From NCBI GenBank assembly GCA_021821445.1, contig JAKACK010000002.1, positions 3,224 through 67,223 of the forward strand: a stretch of DNA of 64,000 bases, read 5' to 3'. This stretch comes from Candidatus Micrarchaeota archaeon. Lineage in GTDB: Archaea; Micrarchaeota; Micrarchaeia; Micrarchaeales; Micrarchaeaceae. A model generated the notes under the pieces. The model was not told the DNA's origin and ran no database searches. It saw only the letters and a program-made list of their open reading frames with translations. Position numbers and translations under genes: made by a program. Of this stretch, positions 54,480-64,000 are shown piece after piece (the first letter of the stretch is position 1; each line of letters starts with the position of its first letter).

Positions 54480-56381
54480 TCATATATCTAAGAAAGAAAC
54501 TTCTGTAGAATGTGCTTCTAAGAACTTTCTCCTATCTTCAACATTAGCACCCATAAGGGTATTAAATATAGAATTGGCCAATTCAGCATCCTTTATTAAA
54601 ATCTTTTTGAGAATTCTATTTTCAGGATTCATTGTAGTCTCCCATAATTGATCAGGATTCATTTCTCCCAATCCCTTGTATCTGTTTACAATTCCCTTAC
54701 CGTTGTTAGCTTCAAGAATTTTATTTAGCTGATCATCACTATAAGCGTATTTTATTTCTTTACCCATTACTATCTTATACAACGGAGGTTGAGCGGAATA
54801 TACATAACCTCTTTCAATTATCTCTTTTAAATACCTATAAAAGAATGTCAACAGTAATGTTTCTATATGGCTACCATCAACATCTGCATCTGTAAGGAAT
54901 ATTATCTTATGGTATCTCACGTTATCAGCATTAAATGAATCTTTAATGCCCGTACCTAAAGCGGTAACTAAGGTATGAAGTTCAGCATTAGCAAATATCT
55001 TTTCGGTAGATGCTTTTTCTACATTTAAAACTTTACCCCTTAGAGGCATTATAGCTTGGAACATTCTATCACGCCCTTGCTTACTAGAACCAGCTGCGCT
55101 ATCCCCCTCTACTATGAATATCTCAGATTTTGAAGGGTCATTTTCAGTACAATCAGCCAATTTTCCAGGTAATACAGAACCTTCAAATAAGCTTTTCTTT
55201 CTCGCTAACTCCCTTGCCCTCTTTGCAGCTTCTCTCGCTTCTGAAGCCCTTACGATTTTTTCAATTATTTTGTTTGCCTCCGTTGGGTTCTCTTCTAAGT
55301 AATAATTTAATTCAGTATAAACTGCATTTTCAACTATCTGTTTTACATAAGTATTTCCTAACTTTTCTTTAGTTTGACCCTCAAACTCGGGATTTTCCAT
55401 CAACACAGAAACTATACCTATTAACCCTTCTCTAGTATCCTCTCCTTCTATATTTGGAAGACTCTTTTTCCCAATATTTTTCTGTATGTAACTTGCTATT
55501 GACCTAGTCAATGCAGAGTGCAATCCAGAAACATGCATACCTCCTTCAGGTGTCTTTATATTATTAACAAATGATAAAAGTTCTTCACTATAAGATTTAA
55601 CATACTGCAAAGCAACACTAACTTTTAAGCTGTCAACTTCCTTTGTTATAACTATGGGTTTTGATATCTCTTCTTTATTATCCCTAATATAAGCAATGAA
55701 ATCCTCTACTCCCTTTTCAGAATAAAAGGTTTTTTCACTGACATTATCATCTCTAGCATCTACAAGAGTGATTTTTAGTCCAGGATTAAGGAAAGTTATA
55801 TCTCTAAGTCTATCAATTAACGCAACAGTATCAAATGAACTCACTGAAAATATCTCTTTATCAGGTTTAAATTTCATTGTAGTTCCACTTTCCTTTGTAT
55901 CACCTATTACTTTTAATTCTGATATAGGCAAACCCCTACTAAATTGCTGCTCATATACCTTTCCTTCTTTTTTTACTGTAACCTGTACATATTCAGATAA
56001 AGCATTCACAACAGTGACTCCAACTCCATGCAATCCTCCTGATACTTTGTATGTTTTATTGTTGAACTTAGCTCCTGAATGCAGTGATGTCATTATAACT
56101 TCAAGTGCAGGCTTATTTAAACCGGGCATTATATCTACAGGAATACCTCTTCCGTCATCTGAAACTTCTGCAACATCCATGTTGTCTTCGTTTGTAAGTT
56201 TTATATATATATTTTTGCAATAACCTGCAGTTGCTTCATCAACTGAGTTATCTATAACTTCATATAGCAAATGTGTAAAACCAGAACTTCCTGTAGAACC
56301 TATATACATACCAGGTCTTTTTCTTATTCCTTGTGCACCTGTGAGCACTACAATATCCTTAGCACTATAATCATTATCCAA
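54480..56381 (-). CDS. gyrB: DNA gyrase subunit B
   Basis: [52 protein letters not shown]. Confidence 0.98.
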
Positions 56382-56422
56382 TTTATCACCAAAAAAGATT
56401 AATTTTATACATATAATATTAC

Positions 56423-56528
56423 AATGTCAGCCTTTTAATTCTTTCTCACAATTGCTGTCATTACCTTCGACGACAAAAATATTAATGAAAAACCCTAATA
56501 AATATCTAATATAATACCGTCGTCAAAA
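56423..56528 (-). ncRNA. Candidate structured leader/sRNA upstream of gyrB
   Basis: 12-bp helix UUUUGACGACGG/UUGUCGUCGAAG with four G.U pairs on the minus strand, followed by helix AAUGACAGC/GCUGACAUU. Confidence 0.45.
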
Positions 56529-56572
56529 TCATAAAAATAAGAAATAATAATTTCAATTAAAAATCTAAAGAT

Positions 56573-57226
56573 TTAAGAGGCCGTAGGCTTAAAAGATTTA
56601 AAACCCTCATAAATCTCTGAAATTCCTCTTATAACAATATAAGTTACCAATATTGCTGTCAATATATATCCGATTAATATGGGGTAGTTTAAGTCCCAAA
56701 CTAAAATTAAATACGAGAAAGTAACGAATTTTGTTATCTGTATACCTGCTCTGCTAAAATTAGAAGAGAAGATCATATCTGTGAATTTCGATTTCATTTT
56801 AGATGAAGTGCCTTTAGCTCCAAGAAGTGCATCTGCAAAGGAATGACGTACAATTATTATCAGTATAACAAATAATGGTAATACATGTAGAAACACAAAA
56901 ACAGCCCATAATGCATATTCTGTTACTCTATCCCCTGCTATATCTAATCTAGGACCATAAGGTGCTATTTTAGATACCGCATGTTTATAAGCAACAACTT
57001 TTTTATGCATATCCTTATTGCCCATAGTGCTTTTTATATAAGTAATAAATCCAATTTTACCTTTACTAGCTTCACTAACTGCAAAAAAACCATCAAGAGC
57101 ATCTGAAGCTAAATCTAAAGCAAACAAAATTATAGTGAATAAAGGATCAAACTTTATCACTATTAAATATACAATGAGAATCATTATAGCCGTTCTTATA
57201 TAAGTTGTTAGATCTGCTTTTCTCAT
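56573..57226 (-). CDS. CDP-alcohol phosphatidyltransferase family protein
   Basis: ADLTTYIR, SDALDGFFA...GPRLDIAGDR (with an insertion), TM helices. Confidence 0.85.
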   Translation of the reverse strand: MRKADLTTYIRTAIMILIVYLIVIKFDPLFTIILFALDLASDALDGFFAVSEASKGKIGFITYIKSTMGNKDMHKKVVAYKHAVSKIAPYGPRLDIAGDRVTEYALWAVFVFLHVLPLFVILIIIVRHSFADALLGAKGTSSKMKSKFTDMIFSSNFSRAGIQITKFVTFSYLILVWDLNYPILIGYILTAILVTYIVIRGISEIYEGFKSFKPTAS

Positions 57227-57249
57227 TTAATTACCTAAAAATAATGGAT

Positions 57250-58707
57250 TTAACTTGCAGTTAAATTAACTGAAACATCTATCCCTCTTTCTCCATTAAT
57301 GAACATCGTATAATTACTTCCATTAATTGGTACTACCGCAATTGGTTTATTAAAAGGAATTCTTATAGAAGTATTATAATTTGTCAATTTGACCGATATG
57401 TTTCCATGCAACATAGACGCATTTGCAGCTACATTTGATTTTGAATTAATTGGGTGAATATAATTGTTAAACAGGTAAATTTCTCCTAAATAAACAAAGG
57501 TATAATTTGAATGTGGTGCAATTACATATCCTGAATTTATATACTGATGCATATCATTCAAATGTGGTATATATAGCTCACCATTATCACTTATTAAGAA
57601 GTTAAGTACATTATGATACCTTTCATTAAATACAAATTTTGAGAAACTTGAATTTACTACTATTTTATTTATTATTGTATTGCTGATCAAACTATGGTTT
57701 GTTAAAAATATAGGTTTTATTTTATAACTACTATTAATTACTCCAGATATACCTTTTCCACTACTATTTATATTAAATTTACTTGATTGATTATAACCAA
57801 ATCCACTACCATTTACATTAAATTTACCTGATTGATTATAACCAAATTTATATGGCATCATAGGTGTTATACCTGTATAATTTAACCCCACTATATTCAT
57901 AGATCCAAATAACATAACATTTCTTATTGTAATCGGATAATTATTATTATTTGTTAAAGTAAATGAAAAAAGTGTACTATTATTTTTGTATCCGACTAAA
58001 TTTTCATTACTAATTGTTAAATTAGGTTTAAATTGATTTAATCTTGCATTAACAGAAAAATTAACGTGAAGTTTTTTACCTAAAATAAAATCAGATTTAT
58101 TCAAATAAGTTTTATTTAATCCAAGTGCATAACCATATGGTTCAAATCCGAAAGAACTTTGATTTTCTGATGAATTATAAAATTGAATTACAGAGGGATT
58201 CAAATCAATCAATAAACCTAAATCTGATTTATTAAATAAGGTTGAATTAAATTCAAAACTATTTGGGGTTGATAGGTTATAAGTTTTATTACCTATTGAC
58301 ATATGACCATTTTCTAGATATAAGGTAATGTTATTTATCAAAATACCTCTTTTAATTTTTACTACTCCTAAAACCTGTGAATAATTACTTAAATTGAGCA
58401 GATTTATCCTTCCCTTATAATTTGTATTTATTACACTATTATTAGATAGACCTAACCTAAAACCTGTATAATTTATATATAAAGAGGTAGTATTTGTTGG
58501 AAGTTCCAAAGGGTCTGTTATTTCTATAGATACATTTTTAGGGGCGTAAAAACTATAAGTTGAATTTGTCACTACTGAATTTGTTGTTACTACTTTATAA
58601 TTAGTAGGAGTAGTATAAATGTAAATAGCTAATATAACCAATATAATACCTATTATTAGGTACGCAATATATTTTATACCTTTAGAACTTTCATTATTCG
58701 AATTCAT
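57250..58707 (-). CDS. Membrane-anchored Asn-rich surface protein (DUF4382-like N-domain)
   Basis: N-terminal TM helix, IEITDP...SLYINYT...GRINLLNL..SQVLG, many NxS/T sequons. Confidence 0.7.
   Translation of the reverse strand: MNSNNESSKGIKYIAYLIIGIILVILAIYIYTTPTNYKVVTTNSVVTNSTYSFYAPKNVSIEITDPLELPTNTTSLYINYTGFRLGLSNNSVINTNYKGRINLLNLSNYSQVLGVVKIKRGILINNITLYLENGHMSIGNKTYNLSTPNSFEFNSTLFNKSDLGLLIDLNPSVIQFYNSSENQSSFGFEPYGYALGLNKTYLNKSDFILGKKLHVNFSVNARLNQFKPNLTISNENLVGYKNNSTLFSFTLTNNNNYPITIRNVMLFGSMNIVGLNYTGITPMMPYKFGYNQSGKFNVNGSGFGYNQSSKFNINSSGKGISGVINSSYKIKPIFLTNHSLISNTIINKIVVNSSFSKFVFNERYHNVLNFLISDNGELYIPHLNDMHQYINSGYVIAPHSNYTFVYLGEIYLFNNYIHPINSKSNVAANASMLHGNISVKLTNYNTSIRIPFNKPIAVVPINGSNYTMFINGERGIDVSVNLTAS
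57758..57847. repeat. 45-nt tandem duplication (3 mismatches) encoding FGYNQS(G/S)KFN(V/I)N(G/S)SG
   Basis: Copies at 57758-57802 and 57803-57847. Confidence 0.9.
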
Positions 58708-58770
58708 ATAATCTACAAATTAATAACAATATTCATATATATATAACTTTCTAATGAATAAAGTGTTTAT

Positions 58771-59034
58771 ATGGTAACTGATACTGCAAAAGATATAATA
58801 AAAAAAGGAGAGATTGTGCTAGAGGTTAATAGGTCAGGTATAACCCAAAAATTAACTTTTAAAATTAAAAGGATAAAAGTAAGCAATGTAGAGTATGTTG
58901 AATTATTCTCTGATAAATTGATAGGATTTAGTGAATTACAAAGATTATCAAACGAAACAGGACTTCCAATAGAAAGCAATAATATAAAGGCATTTCCAAC
59001 TGGTTTAGGTATAAAAGATTTTATCAATTTATAA
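58771..59034 (+). CDS. Hypothetical protein (87 aa)
   Basis: ATG after AGTG, coding-like composition. Family not recognised. Confidence 0.7.
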   Translation: MVTDTAKDIIKKGEIVLEVNRSGITQKLTFKIKRIKVSNVEYVELFSDKLIGFSELQRLSNETGLPIESNNIKAFPTGLGIKDFINL

Positions 59035-59042
59035 AAATAAAA

Positions 59043-60830
59043 TTAAACTATCTCATCTGTCGCAATATCTGCATTTCCTGTAGCTGTATAATTTTGTTTG
59101 TTTAATGTATAATTTATTGTTAAATTATAATCTGTTCTAGTCGTATGTATAGGTATTGGTATATTGTAGCATTCTAAAAGAATTGAATTCGATGATTTTG
59201 GGATCAAAGTGGTATTTATTGGCGTGTACTTCTTCATTCCAGGTACATAACATGAACCATTATTCAATAATACTGTTTTATTTAAATTATTGGTTATATT
59301 CAAAGCCACTATATCCGTTGCATAGTCAAAGCCAACAAAACCACATGAAAGGTTTTTCGTACTTATACTACAATTACTTTGCACAGATGGTTTCCACTTA
59401 TATACATTTTGGCTTATATTAAGGGCATTTATTAAGTTATCTCCATTTACTGCTGACGCATTTTCGTAATAACTTTTTGTAAAGGAATATAGGTTCAAAC
59501 TATAATTAGATCCTAACTCAGTTGAATTTACTAAACTGTAATTTGTAAAATACTTCTTTTGATAAACAGGATTTATTAAAGTAGAACAAACATCTACTCC
59601 TGTTGTTATATTTCTATATACTCCTCCATAGCATATTCCATTATAAGTTGAGATATTGACAGGTTTAAGATTATCTAAAACTTGTGAAGAAAATACCCCA
59701 TATCCATTTTCAAATAAGTTATCATAACCTAAATTAGTTTTATTCAAAAAGGTAATTTGCCCTAAAGAAGAGTAATTAGAATAAATGAATCCTCCTTCAT
59801 ATTTAACAACATTAGGATTTGACTTTAAACTATTAACAATATCAGTAAATTCATCAGGTGTATAATTTTTGGATATAATATTTTTACAATTAAATGGCAA
59901 AGAGTTATTATAGACACTTACAATTTTATTCCATCCAAAATTGTAATAAGTACAAATACTCGTTGAATTATTATATTTAAAATAATCTCCAGTTAAACCA
60001 TCAAAATTAAATTCATTTCCCTTATACCCTTCAATACCTAATTCCGAATTAATCTCAGGTGTTGTAAGGTTACCCAATATCCAAAGATTTGATATTGCAG
60101 ATCCATTATTATATTTAGCATAAACACCATTGGTAATATTCGTAACAAGTGCAAAATAAGTTACAGTATTGCTAATTAATCCATTTGTAGATCCAAAAAG
60201 ATTCTTAAATGTTGTTAAATTGTAATTTGAGGACATCACTGATGAAAATCCAATACCCTTAGGTGATAAGTCATATTCATAAGTCTCATTAATTCCTTTA
60301 TTTGGTATAGATACATATAGATCAGGGGATTCTACAGGTGAAACATTCAAATTAAATCCGCTACTTGCATTCTTTTTATCTGTTATATTAAATAAACTTG
60401 CGGGATCTATTATACCTTCAAAATAATAACTCCCATTTTGTGCAAAGGTGTAATTAAAAGTCAAGTTTACAGTTTTATGGGCAGGCAAAGAAACCGTATA
60501 TGTCTTAATTGTGTTATTATTTAAGTAAACATCAAGTGGAATTTTATGCATATTTGAAGATCCTAAATTTTTTACATTCATACTTATTCCGATCTTACTA
60601 AATGGATATAATGAGTTAGAGGTATTATAATAGATAGGTTTTAAAGTTATTGATACATCATAAGAGTTGCTAACTCGCATGTTGAGGTAAATATAAAACG
60701 CAATAACTACGATTACTATTATTAAAATATAGAAAATTAAACTTCTGCTGCTTATCTTATACTTTTTAGAATTAGTATCAATTCCAGTATTATTACTTAT
60801 AGCATTATTATCATTTTTTTTATTAGTCAA
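59043..60830 (-). CDS. Membrane-anchored surface glycoprotein with CARDB/Ig-like domain and Cys-containing C-domain
   Basis: TM helix, VKNLGS...YLN...LPAH...FNYTF..NGSY...IDP, many sequons, paired Cys. Confidence 0.72.
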   Translation of the reverse strand: MTNKKNDNNAISNNTGIDTNSKKYKISSRSLIFYILIIVIVVIAFYIYLNMRVSNSYDVSITLKPIYYNTSNSLYPFSKIGISMNVKNLGSSNMHKIPLDVYLNNNTIKTYTVSLPAHKTVNLTFNYTFAQNGSYYFEGIIDPASLFNITDKKNASSGFNLNVSPVESPDLYVSIPNKGINETYEYDLSPKGIGFSSVMSSNYNLTTFKNLFGSTNGLISNTVTYFALVTNITNGVYAKYNNGSAISNLWILGNLTTPEINSELGIEGYKGNEFNFDGLTGDYFKYNNSTSICTYYNFGWNKIVSVYNNSLPFNCKNIISKNYTPDEFTDIVNSLKSNPNVVKYEGGFIYSNYSSLGQITFLNKTNLGYDNLFENGYGVFSSQVLDNLKPVNISTYNGICYGGVYRNITTGVDVCSTLINPVYQKKYFTNYSLVNSTELGSNYSLNLYSFTKSYYENASAVNGDNLINALNISQNVYKWKPSVQSNCSISTKNLSCGFVGFDYATDIVALNITNNLNKTVLLNNGSCYVPGMKKYTPINTTLIPKSSNSILLECYNIPIPIHTTRTDYNLTINYTLNKQNYTATGNADIATDEIV

Positions 60831-60834
60831 AAAA

Positions 60835-61290
60835 TCACCTTTTCTTTAATTCACCGATTACCGTTACAATTTTATCTTTTATCGGTTCTATTTCTGAATT
60901 TATATAGTAATTTAGCCATTCAGATTCATTATATTGCTCTACATCTGTTGGTATTAAAATATAATATTTTCCTTTTGAATGGTCAATTATATTCATATTT
61001 TTAAGGTGTAATAAATGATATCTTAATGTTTTTTCATTTATTTCACCCCAATTGCTTATTATATAATTTTTTATATCTAAAACAGTTGGATTGATCTTTT
61101 TACTAAATTGAAAATATAACATTGCATCAAAAACATATATAGAGCTTAACCTAGATTCTCCAGGATTTATTATACCTAAAGTTAAAGCTAGCCATCTAAC
61201 CATTGATCTTCTGGTTTCAATAACCTCTCCAGTCAACTTTAAATCTCTCAGTATTATTTCTCTATCTATTAACTTAGATTCGTTAAGCAA
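60835..61290 (-). CDS. Winged-helix DNA-binding protein
   Basis: RWLALTLG...GESR, INEKTLRYHLLHLKNMNII...KGKY. SD AGGTG plus TTG at 61290. Confidence 0.75.
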   Translation of the reverse strand: MLNESKLIDREIILRDLKLTGEVIETRRSMVRWLALTLGIINPGESRLSSIYVFDAMLYFQFSKKINPTVLDIKNYIISNWGEINEKTLRYHLLHLKNMNIIDHSKGKYYILIPTDVEQYNESEWLNYYINSEIEPIKDKIVTVIGELKKR

Positions 61291-61396
61291 ATTAAAGACA
61301 CCTATATTAAAATTCAATCCTAAATTATTTATAAGTAAGCAATAAAAATTAATACTATCTATATCATACAAAGGGATAATATAAAAGGTGATAAGG

Positions 61397-61741
61397 ATAA
61401 CAACAGAATTGGATGCAGAGTTTACACCAAAAAATCAAAAAAACAATCAAAATGAAATAAATGTATCCTTAAAAATAAAAAATAATTCTAAAGATTATTA
61501 TTGGTATGAATTTGAGATTGGTGTTAACGACCCATTATCATTAGTGTATGATCGAAAATTATCAAAAGGTAAATTTAGGCTAGGTATCCTAAATAGTACC
61601 GAAGAAAAAATCAAGGAGTTTAGAATATATAATTTAGAAAAAAATCAAAATCCAATTTACAATTTTAACATAACGATGTATGTATACGATAAAGATGGTG
61701 CTATATCAGAAAGGCTTGACCGGAATTTTGAAGACAAATAA
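61397..61741 (+). CDS. Hypothetical beta-sandwich protein (probable ATA start)
   Basis: The ORF-track GTG at 61388 lies inside the SD AGGTGA. ATA at 61397 has the usual spacing. Confidence 0.65.
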   Translation: MTTELDAEFTPKNQKNNQNEINVSLKIKNNSKDYYWYEFEIGVNDPLSLVYDRKLSKGKFRLGILNSTEEKIKEFRIYNLEKNQNPIYNFNITMYVYDKDGAISERLDRNFEDK

Positions 61742-61748
61742 AGCCATA

Positions 61749-62027
61749 TTACCTTTTTATAATAAAAGTATCTTTGAATTTATCAATATTGTCAGGTAAA
61801 GGTAATTCTTCAATATTGTAAACTTGAATTCCATAATCTGTATAAATATTTATTGAATTTATGAATTTTTCAACTAAATTGTCATCACCCAAAATAAGAA
61901 TTTCAACACTTCCATCTTCCATATTTTGAACATAACCATTTATTCTATATTTATCCGCTAGATTCTTTACAAAAGCTCTATAACCAACACCTTGAACTAT
62001 ACCATGCACGTGTATAAGCTTTTTCAA
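61749..62027 (-). CDS. acyP: Acylphosphatase
   Basis: VHGIVQGVGYR, GYVQNMEDGSVE. Confidence 0.95.
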   Translation of the reverse strand: MKKLIHVHGIVQGVGYRAFVKNLADKYRINGYVQNMEDGSVEILILGDDNLVEKFINSINIYTDYGIQVYNIEELPLPDNIDKFKDTFIIKR

Positions 62028-62029
62028 GT

Positions 62030-63142
62030 TTAACCACCAAATCTAAAGAAGAATCTTTTTATCATAAGTTTTAAGCTATCCATATCCCCGTATTTACCGA
62101 AAAAGGAATCAAGTCCAAATATATTCATCATCAATAAATTAAAATCAAATAGTCTGTTATTGAGTGATGAATAGTAAGAATGCAATATTTTATGCATTTT
62201 TAAATCATTTCCATAAGCTTTTCTCCAATCTCTATCATAATTCTGTAATGGTTTAGCTAATTTTATTGTATCCATTATTGATTTATAAGCTATATCTGCA
62301 CAGGATAATCCAAATATTAATCCACCACCTGTCGTAGATTTTGTTTGGCCTGCAGCATCACCTAAAAGTAAAACATTTCCAATAGCAGTTTTTTTCCTAA
62401 TTGAAATTGGTATTAAACTAGCATACACCGAATCCTGTTCAGCATTTTCTCCAATTATTTTATCTAAATAACCCCTACTTTTTAATTTGTCAAATGCAGT
62501 TTTACTAGTATAATTTGATTTAGGCTCTGTACCAATCCCAATTTCTGTTTTAGATTTAGAATATGGTATAGCCCAGCTAAAAAATCCTTTTGATATAGAG
62601 TTATCAAAAAATAGCTGTACCCTATCTAATTTGTTATATGCTGTATTTGAATATTGGACCTTATATGTCAATACATAATTAGATATTTCCGGAAATCCAA
62701 ATGCTTTTGCTGTATATGATACAACCCCATCTGAGCCAACTATTATTGTATCCCCATCATCTAAATTTCTTATTTCATTTAAATTCATTCTTTTTCCTAA
62801 ATGAACATTAGCTCCGCTTTTCATCGCGTTTTTATATGAATTTGATATCAATACCTTTCTATCTAAAACATACGCTTTTGGCTCTTTAGATAATACACTT
62901 AATTTTTTATTATTAGAATGTATATCTGCACCATACAATGTATTTATGAGCGCGCCTGTATAATCTATATTCAATCTTTTAACTCCGGAAATAGATAACA
63001 CTCCAGAGGCCTTGTCAGCACCATATTCAATATTCTTTTTTCCATCATATACATCTACATTTATACCGTTTTTAGCCAAATTCTCAGCTAACCTCAAACC
63101 CATCATTCCAGCTCCAATTATAACTACCCTATCATAAACCAA
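62030..63142 (-). CDS. Geranylgeranyl reductase family FAD oxidoreductase
   Basis: IIGAG, LDRK, GSDGV.S, FSWAIP, GDAAGQTK.TTGGG. Confidence 0.85.
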   Translation of the reverse strand: MVYDRVVIIGAGMMGLRLAENLAKNGINVDVYDGKKNIEYGADKASGVLSISGVKRLNIDYTGALINTLYGADIHSNNKKLSVLSKEPKAYVLDRKVLISNSYKNAMKSGANVHLGKRMNLNEIRNLDDGDTIIVGSDGVVSYTAKAFGFPEISNYVLTYKVQYSNTAYNKLDRVQLFFDNSISKGFFSWAIPYSKSKTEIGIGTEPKSNYTSKTAFDKLKSRGYLDKIIGENAEQDSVYASLIPISIRKKTAIGNVLLLGDAAGQTKSTTGGGLIFGLSCADIAYKSIMDTIKLAKPLQNYDRDWRKAYGNDLKMHKILHSYYSSLNNRLFDFNLLMMNIFGLDSFFGKYGDMDSLKLMIKRFFFRFGG

Positions 63143-63242
63143 TATAACTCACATTATTAAATTTTACAACAAACTATATTAAGCATAATTTAAAAAAGGT
63201 ATAAATATAGTAAAGTTCATAATATAAATAATAAGTGATACA

Positions 63243-63608
63243 ATGGTTAAAAAAAGCACCAATAAAACTGATGTTAAAAAGAAGGTAGTTAAAAAACAAG
63301 TCGTTAAAAAGGAGGCAAATTCGTCATTAGATAACCCTAAAATAAACATACAGAATATTGTTGTAAGTGCTGATTTACATGCAACAATAGATTTATACAG
63401 TTTATCAAGAGAAGTTAGAGCAGTAGATTATGAACCTGAACAATTTCCAGGTGCTATATTCAGAGTACCTGAATCAAAAGCAATAATACTATTCAAAAAT
63501 GGTAAAATGATCTGTACAGGTTCTAAAACAGAAAAGGAGGTAAAGACCATATTGGAATATGTATCAGGTGTTGTATCAAAATATGTTGTATCAATGAACA
63601 AGAGCTAA
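63243..63608 (+). CDS. Single-repeat (half) TATA-binding-protein homolog with Lys-rich N-tail
   Basis: INIQNIVVSADL..IDL...YEPEQFPGAIFR...IILFKNGKMICTGSK is one complete TBP repeat. The ORF ends with no room for a second. Confidence 0.88.
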   Translation: MVKKSTNKTDVKKKVVKKQVVKKEANSSLDNPKINIQNIVVSADLHATIDLYSLSREVRAVDYEPEQFPGAIFRVPESKAIILFKNGKMICTGSKTEKEVKTILEYVSGVVSKYVVSMNKS

Positions 63609-63611
63609 TAA

Positions 63612-64000
63612 TTATTTTTTCTTTGCTTTATACAAAATTTTATCAAATTCTTTAAAGAAATGCTCCCATGAGTATTCTTTTTTAACTCTTTTTAATCCTT
63701 CCTTACCAAATTTTTCTATTAAATTAGGATTATTTACTAAATAATCCATCTTTTCAGCCATTTGAAGCTCATTGTTGACTAAAAATCCAGTTTTATTATT
63801 TATAACCGTCTCTTTTGGGCCCCCCTCATTTACAACTATCACAGGTTTTGAACTTGCCATACCCTCCAAAGGAACTAAACCATAATCCTCATTTATCGGA
63901 GGATAAAGTACTGCAGATGCATTTGCATATAAATTTAGTAATTTTTTGTCATCTACATTCGTTAATATTTTTATGCCCTCTGTATTATTTGCAAACTTCT
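63612..64000 (-). CDS. GT4 family glycosyltransferase (5' part outside window)
   Basis: LYANASAVLYPPINEDYGLVPLEGMASSKPVIVVNEGGPKETV...TGFLV. Confidence 0.92.
   Translation of the reverse strand, partial: KFANNTEGIKILTNVDDKKLLNLYANASAVLYPPINEDYGLVPLEGMASSKPVIVVNEGGPKETVINNKTGFLVNNELQMAEKMDYLVNNPNLIEKFGKEGLKRVKKEYSWEHFFKEFDKILYKAKKK

Follow-up and report, generated by a model that had tools for sequence, protein, structure and literature searches.

A conserved single-repeat TATA-binding protein in Micrarchaeia as a putative lobe of a split TBP

Analysis of a 64,000-nucleotide stretch of a Candidatus Micrarchaeota genome (hereafter the window) revealed a gene, tbpA, that encodes a real, stand-alone TATA-binding protein (TBP) of a single repeat. 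Comparison with relatives indicates that this type is a real, conserved and lineage-wide variant of TBP. Based on sequence searches and structure models, tbpA appears TBP-like in every test run, yet it lacks the two tandem repeats per chain that mark a canonical TBP. With one repeat per chain, a saddle needs two chains. We propose, with a probability of about 0.62, that tbpA (class A, or A) is one lobe of a split TBP, and that it would pair with an unlinked second half (B) into a two-lobed saddle, as predicted by the complex model. The features of the locus are listed in Table 1.

Table 1. Features of the tbpA locus, in window coordinates
Feature	Position	Strand	Remark
BRE (AAAAGG) and TATA box (TATAAATA, 63200-63207)	63194..63207	+	AAAAGG-TATAAATA, 11.2 bits, reached by 2/2000 shuffles of the region
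SD-like GTGAT, 3 nt before ATG	63235..63239	+	spacing as in the genome-wide GGTGAT motif
tbpA, single-repeat TBP, class A paralogue	63243..63608	+	ATG start, 121 aa
N-terminal basic tail of 30 aa, including 10 K and 6 V	63243..63332	+	length and sequence differ among orthologues
TBP repeat, PF00352, residues 33-113	63339..63581	+	one lobe in the AlphaFold model
Q37-N38-I39-V40, strand S1	63351..63362	+	predicted antiparallel partner of the other half's S1, at the saddle centre
YEPEQFPG acidic stirrup, C-repeat type; F68 = first intercalating Phe	63429..63452	+	
F84, second intercalating Phe, in LFKNGK	63492..63494	+	alignment to solved TBPs
Geranylgeranyl-reductase-like FAD oxidoreductase, divergent	62030..63142	-	conserved upstream neighbour of class A genes
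GT4 glycosyltransferase, 3' part, convergent	63612..63998	-	domain match

A preliminary description, made from the DNA letters alone, had stated that the gene encodes exactly one TBP repeat, and this is borne out. A single stretch of the protein matches PF00352, covering profile positions 1-84 of 85 with 77.5 bits against a cut-off of 22.9, and tblastn revealed no second repeat near tbpA in any frame, the sole other strong match in the genome being on contig C3. The motifs Q37-N38-I39-V40, Y63-EPEQ-F68-PG and L83-F84-KNGK align with both repeats of the TBPs from S. acidocaldarius (E 1e-35 against tbpA), M. jannaschii and P. woesei. Alignment with solved archaeal TBPs thus agrees with the earlier statement that the QNIV motif and both intercalating phenylalanines are kept. 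The stirrup YEPEQFPG, which we take to have a TFB-binding role, is invariant in 37 of 37 Micrarchaeia repeats, as is F84. Among 32 class A proteins the core position N11 is nearly invariant and V13 invariant, and N38, V40, F68 and F84 are invariant or nearly so. A and B both retain the DNA-facing Asn, Val and Phe positions together with the acidic stirrup. At positions of strand S4 that presumably face DNA, class A has V-x-I and class B has A-x-L. The S3-S4 loop of tbpA is one residue shorter than in most class A proteins (window 63477-63482), a deletion common to G001, G002, G007 and G402 and absent from the other class A proteins. The Lys/Val-rich N-terminal tail was also described correctly for residues 1-30, though it varies among orthologues; basic tails also occur in B and in single-copy TBPs. 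In NCBIfam, tbpA falls below all whole-protein TBP cut-offs (181-347; best score 82.5 bits), which is a weak test because a two-repeat relative also falls below its cut-offs.

The gene has its own TATA box and SD-like sequence and lies between a divergent and a convergent gene, all four as first described. The BRE-TATA matrix used to score the promoter had been built from genes of the source genome in co-directional arrangement, which leaves the divergent tbpA outside the training set. The divergent ORF encodes 370 aa and matches TIGR02032 with 131 bits, below the cut-off of 158.8. A geranylgeranyl-reductase-like gene is divergent from class A in 94 of 113 loci, and a convergent ORF cluster lies downstream in 95 of the 113; neither count is de-duplicated. 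An Rfam scan of 56000-64000 gave no match. Promoters of the source genome (G000), of G002 and of G035 have the ordinary AA-NN-TWTAWAWA layout. TATA asymmetry in co-directional sets was 0.30 in G000, 0.31 in G002, 0.20 in G035 (B only) and 0.21 in G304 (two-repeat), with overlapping bootstrap ranges. Palindromic TATA boxes had been predicted for the B-only genome; the A+B genomes showed no clear excess of asymmetry over it. In G097 the motif search settled on no TATA motif.

The source assembly is fragmented, 84.8% complete and contains gaps, so a recent truncation, a pseudogene or an assembly error of a full TBP had to be considered. This explanation is refuted. A single repeat of this kind is found in 80 of 80 related loci, none of which carries the full TBP that a truncation or misassembly would have left in relatives, and no second repeat lies nearby, in agreement with the earlier view that tbpA is not a frameshifted full TBP. 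The conservation and dN/dS analysis suggested there revealed purifying selection: dN/dS is 0-0.022, that is about 0.02 or lower, in the six of ten class A pairs that are unsaturated. In the remaining four, both tbpA pairs among them, pS exceeds 0.8 with pN below 0.07 (0.056-0.066 in the tbpA pairs), so that the protein has been preserved despite saturation at synonymous sites. In addition, the gene is present on contigs of other runs. A contig of run X6 covers 62400-63668, including the entire gene, with 1 difference. One from run X7 extends over 62400-64000 and departs from the window by 2 substitutions and 1 insertion; being near-identical, X7 may be the source of this DNA. Finally, the complete chromosome G402 (locus L065) has the same arrangement: about 630 kb separate A from B, and a full TBP is absent.

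The source genome (Micrarchaeota archaeon, 840 kb in 37 contigs) contains two TBP matches, both single-repeat: tbpA and B, a protein of 115 aa on contig C3 (L001:1477-1824, minus strand). The two are 49% identical and unlinked. A search for a canonical TBP or a second half elsewhere in the genome had been recommended; the second half was found, whereas the Pfam profile detected no two-repeat TBP, and nothing was added by a profile specific to Micrarchaeia, even with matches up to E = 1 admitted. Since the genome is 84.8% complete, a missing full TBP is possible on this genome alone. Named relatives of tbpA are nearly all from Micrarchaeota, and the closest named protein, from Ca. Mancarchaeum acidiphilum, has 119 aa and is 80% identical. 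NCBI records call several half-TBPs 'hypothetical protein', and the factor is therefore easily missed.

No TFB was found in the source genome (loci considered: whole genome and L394:10522-11595), whereas 78 of 80 relatives have one, among them both genomes of the same genus. The short contig C2 begins, at its cut end, with a match to the gene that adjoins tfb in G002, and a neighbouring ORF is missing too. Because the tfb flank falls at this cut start, the absence is probably an assembly gap, and a loss of TFB in this genome was rejected. Given the ordinary BRE-TATA layout and TFB in the relatives, the downstream machinery looks standard. Extra TFIIB-repeat matches, possible TFB expansions, were seen in G242:C1 (10), G026:C3 (5) and G304:C1 (5), against the usual 2.

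The distribution of half-TBPs was examined across the class. In the own family of the source genome (f1), 85 of 88 genomes have at least two TBP matches, two have one and one has none; the 82 genomes of the sister family f3 divide into 44 with one match, 35 with at least two and three with none. Both are match counts per genome, with positions for 150 of the 684 matches. No genome of the f3 genera g25, g29, g32 and g35 has a second match. In the 41 genomes with all positions, every match is a single-repeat ORF, barring two two-repeat ORFs in G011 (L003, G011:C43) and G029 (L212, G029:C77). We do not accept these two as native, because their contigs are short (8.4 and 3.7 kb) and their repeats fall outside the Micrarchaeia group; they are probably contamination and were excluded from the repeat trees and the repeat-identity count. 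Among single-contig genomes, A and B lie far apart with no other TBP in G002 and G402, and a lone half is present in G032 and G035, where the sensitive profile gave the same result. B was the half found in 15 of 15 single-copy f1 and f3 genomes examined, none having A alone (G006, one of these, has a further partial match). The sole A-only result came from G403, a small fragmentary genome.

Among 80 genomes from 31 other families of the class, a chosen sample in which kin are not independent, 40 have a two-repeat TBP (11 families, f4-f6, f8, f9, f13, f19, f21, f23, f33 and f34, plus the genome G375). The other 40, from 20 families, have only single-repeat ORFs, with one match above 80 bits in 38 of them. 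The single-repeat state is found in 23 of the 34 families sampled. Some genomes showed further peculiarities. G112:C1 (L138, L235, L236) carries three unlinked single-repeat TBP genes, two of them nearly identical in the core. Short diverged TBP-domain-like ORFs of 99-114 aa (19-42 bits) are present besides the main TBP in L253 (G274:C12), L254 (G182:C12) and G042:C9. Three records titled Methanothrix, Acidiferrales or Marsarchaeota (L061, L085, L059) contain Micrarchaeaceae-type half-TBP loci, have genome sizes of 0.7-0.8 Mb and appear to be mistitled.

The two halves differ in their genomic position. The gene rpl21e is divergent in 79 of 108 B or single-copy loci and in 9 of 11 two-repeat loci, and in none of the class A loci (counts not de-duplicated). 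Class A forms a clade (SH-aLRT 100) on a long branch (0.34), sister to the B of f1 and f3 (87). On this comparison, B holds the usual TBP position beside rpl21e, and tbpA is an extra, relocated duplicate, because its clade is sister to B, is never found beside rpl21e and has its own conserved neighbour. The start codons, called by rule, also differ. Class A genes begin with ACG behind a GGTG SD in 59 of 80 loci (L057-L136), with ATG in 14 and ATA in 2, and 5 are uncalled, whereas B in f1 begins with ATG in 21 of 26. Genes of tbpA's own genus and most f3 class A genes start with ATG (L027, L029 and L174 were also examined). An ACG start would mean that class A is made in smaller amounts.

The AlphaFold model of the tbpA core (pLDDT 86.7) revealed one TBP lobe. 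All top Foldseek matches are TBPs, with TM scores of 0.81-0.84 over the query (M. jannaschii, yeast) and about 0.45 over the target. Given two cores of A and two of B, the complex prediction formed two A:B pairs with a score of 0.61 against 0.00 for the best control, in a job unlike the tool's calibration and from alignments of 32 rows ordered by genome, which could favour A:B. Of 157 solved complexes, 116 come up to the mark for complexes, as do 2 of 215 mismatched pairs. At least 87% of contacts are common to the runs, and the partner pLDDT is at least 80. In the modelled A:B interface the S1 strands are antiparallel, with B core residues 11-14 against A core residues 8-13 (A residues 35-40), and the H2 helices take part in the interface. 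The score of this model may reflect its likeness to solved TBPs.

The preliminary description had suggested that a homodimer would give a fully symmetric TBP, with a heterodimer partner as an alternative. The symmetric form fits paralogue B and the single-copy families better than tbpA, since the model pairs A with B and the single-copy genomes examined in f1 and f3 keep B. As the model prefers A:B when both are offered, a heterodimer partner suits tbpA better. A could still pair with itself and, as a symmetric homodimer, serve some promoters as an alternative TBP that acts independently of B: it keeps every motif that a lobe needs, genomes with one half only must run on single-repeat homodimers, and A and B differ at the DNA-facing positions of S4. 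We consider this unlikely, since the model given two copies of each paired A with B, and the single-copy genomes and the poor quality of the one A-only genome described above argue against it. Less likely again is that A is a regulator, which pairs with B to lower or redirect B activity or coats DNA via its basic tail. A is dispensable in part of f3, its mostly ACG start would keep levels low and its branch is long, which would suit such a role; strong purifying selection on both Phe, on Asn and on the stirrup speaks against it, the tail is not conserved, and basic tails are not peculiar to A. The repressor or chromatin protein raised at the outset found nothing positive that points to either.

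The reading we favour is still that A and B pair, and for this we propose the following mechanism. A and B would rebuild the saddle, bend the TATA box and recruit TFB like an ordinary TBP. The S1 strands of the two chains would pair antiparallel, with the H2 helices packed over S1. The B:B homodimer would be the basic form, given that B is all that lineages lacking A have, and A:B a second, asymmetric form. With a single match in 44 of the 82 f3 genomes, A:B would not be the essential form everywhere. The dose of A might be set by its start codon, ACG giving less protein in most of the family and ATG being used in tbpA's genus. With the TFB stirrup present on both lobes, the direction of transcription would come from TFB reading the BRE. 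The accessible part of PMC7408454 has no passage on such BRE-set polarity. As for its history, the single repeat would come from the C-terminal repeat of an ordinary archaeal TBP; B would have stayed in place, and A would be a copy that moved later.

Phylogenetic analysis against N- and C-terminal repeats, another check recommended earlier, grouped the halves with C repeats. In a tree of 153 rows and 87 columns from a quick search, all Micrarchaeia-type repeats fall together (SH-aLRT 95) within the C repeats of other archaea, with the singles as a subgroup (85). Forcing the Micrarchaeia N repeats together with ordinary N repeats was rejected (AU p 0.0096; 70 rows, 87 columns). The two repeats of Micrarchaeia TBPs are unusually similar, with a median identity of 65.5% in 28 proteins compared with 38% in 139 others. 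Four two-repeat TBPs with Micrarchaeia-type repeats (P0124, P0125, P0126, P0133) make up N and C groups apart from the rest; they may stem from another duplication or belong to a sister lineage. The three- or four-repeat matches P0122, P0123, P0128 and P0155 were considered and are not of the Micrarchaeia type; P0123 is a TBP of 272 aa with three repeats, the first two nearly identical.

A tree of RNA polymerase (1538 columns) separates single- from two-repeat families at one branch, with SH-aLRT 99 under IQ-TREE LG+G4 (47 of 89 taxa) and again 99 under a mixture model (32 taxa); FastTree on all 89 taxa did not recover the split as one branch. The midpoint root, placed with no outgroup, lies among single-repeat families. 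L302 (G300), L311 (G142) and L314 (G025) encode RpoB in a single ORF of about 1100 aa, whereas it is split in the others examined. In the RNA polymerase tree G375 was grouped with its single-repeat family f12. The two repeats of its TBP (L234, G375:C30:5300-7000) are 85% identical and nest among f12 singles, which indicates a recent re-fusion of two copies; an N gap follows the second repeat.

The preliminary description also likened tbpA to the proposed ancestral TBP. The likeness holds for architecture and not for descent: the halves are derived, because they nest among C repeats, and the single repeat is by this evidence a return to the proposed ancestral form. That it is instead a relic surviving from before the TBP duplication is very improbable. 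The RNA polymerase midpoint root among single-repeat families, again with no outgroup, is on the side of a relic, as is an architecture equal to the monopartite prototype proposed in the parts available of PMC3597702 and PMC12917281. The position of all Micrarchaeia-type repeats inside the C repeats (95) and the AU test (p 0.0096) are on the other. A relic would also require the archaeal root to lie inside this class, a placement for which we know of no support. Derivation from a C-terminal repeat is thus the account we retain, and, with no outgroup genome, two orders of events are possible: TBP may have split first and the repeat been duplicated again later, or the repeats may have been homogenised before the split. 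Taken as a whole, the Micrarchaeia may replay the origin of TBP, a scenario that we advance tentatively and at slightly less than even odds. An early cut would have left one repeat, working as a symmetric homodimer, as the only TBP; the two-lobed form would then have re-arisen both fused, in the two-repeat families and recently in G375, and unfused, as A:B with an ACG-tuned dose in most of the family.

These proteins bear on assumptions made about TBP in general. The two repeats are taken as one duplication of a one-lobe prototype (PMC4910066 and PMC3597702, in the parts available), and first and second repeats form two clades in 34 species in an analysis that relies on a single duplication (PMC4910066, likewise in part). 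A monopartite prototype is also assumed in the part available of PMC12917281. As Micrarchaeia repeats are alike for recent reasons, the single-duplication assumption behind a repeat-similarity clock is broken. The known one-lobe proteins are described in the accessible parts of PMC4910066 and PMC3597702 as non-essential or of unknown function, whereas in this class many genomes seem to have no TBP other than one-lobe proteins. TBP is reported in most DPANN genomes with no comment on size in the part seen of PMC8407392, and the main text of PMC5498576 mentions neither TBP nor TATA. In the literature consulted, supplements and most subscription papers aside, we found no description of a lineage relying on a single-repeat TBP; a mention elsewhere is possible. 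Natural proteins of this kind could show whether a symmetric homodimer starts directional transcription, with polarity from TFB and BRE alone. They also allow one to address what a second, different lobe adds (A:B compared with B:B) and how fusion changes the factor.

Comparison with canonical archaeal TBP (two PF00352 domains; PDB 1mp9, 2z8u, 1ais/1pcz) revealed the same lobe fold in tbpA, with TM scores of 0.76-0.84 over the query, and the same Asn, Val and Phe positions and YEPEQFPG stirrup. BRE-TATA promoters and TFB are likewise found in tbpA's lineage. However, canonical TBP has two repeats per chain and tbpA one in 121 aa, so that its saddle would form between chains. Similar to tbpA, halobacterial TbpA has a single TBP domain, and it clusters with true TBP repeats; it is described as functional but non-essential and as closely resembling the full TBPs that its species also has, which sets it apart from tbpA (PMC3597702, whose accessible part does not mention Micrarchaeum or ARMAN). 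The setting also differs, as many Micrarchaeia genomes have no TBP besides the half, and no full TBP was found in the source genome or in single-contig relatives. The single TBP-domain proteins of Thermococcales (e.g. NP_578195) are likewise stand-alone domains, of about 90-97 aa, but are described as strongly diverged, forming their own cluster and occurring beside a full TBP (PMC3597702, same part). In contrast, tbpA groups inside TBP repeats, scores 77.5 bits against PF00352 and keeps the DNA-facing motifs. Further counterparts are the two-repeat TBPs of Micrarchaeia themselves, which carry the signature FPGAI...LFKNGK of tbpA in both repeats and share the rpl21e locus with B, whereas their two repeats, unusually alike, are fused in one chain.
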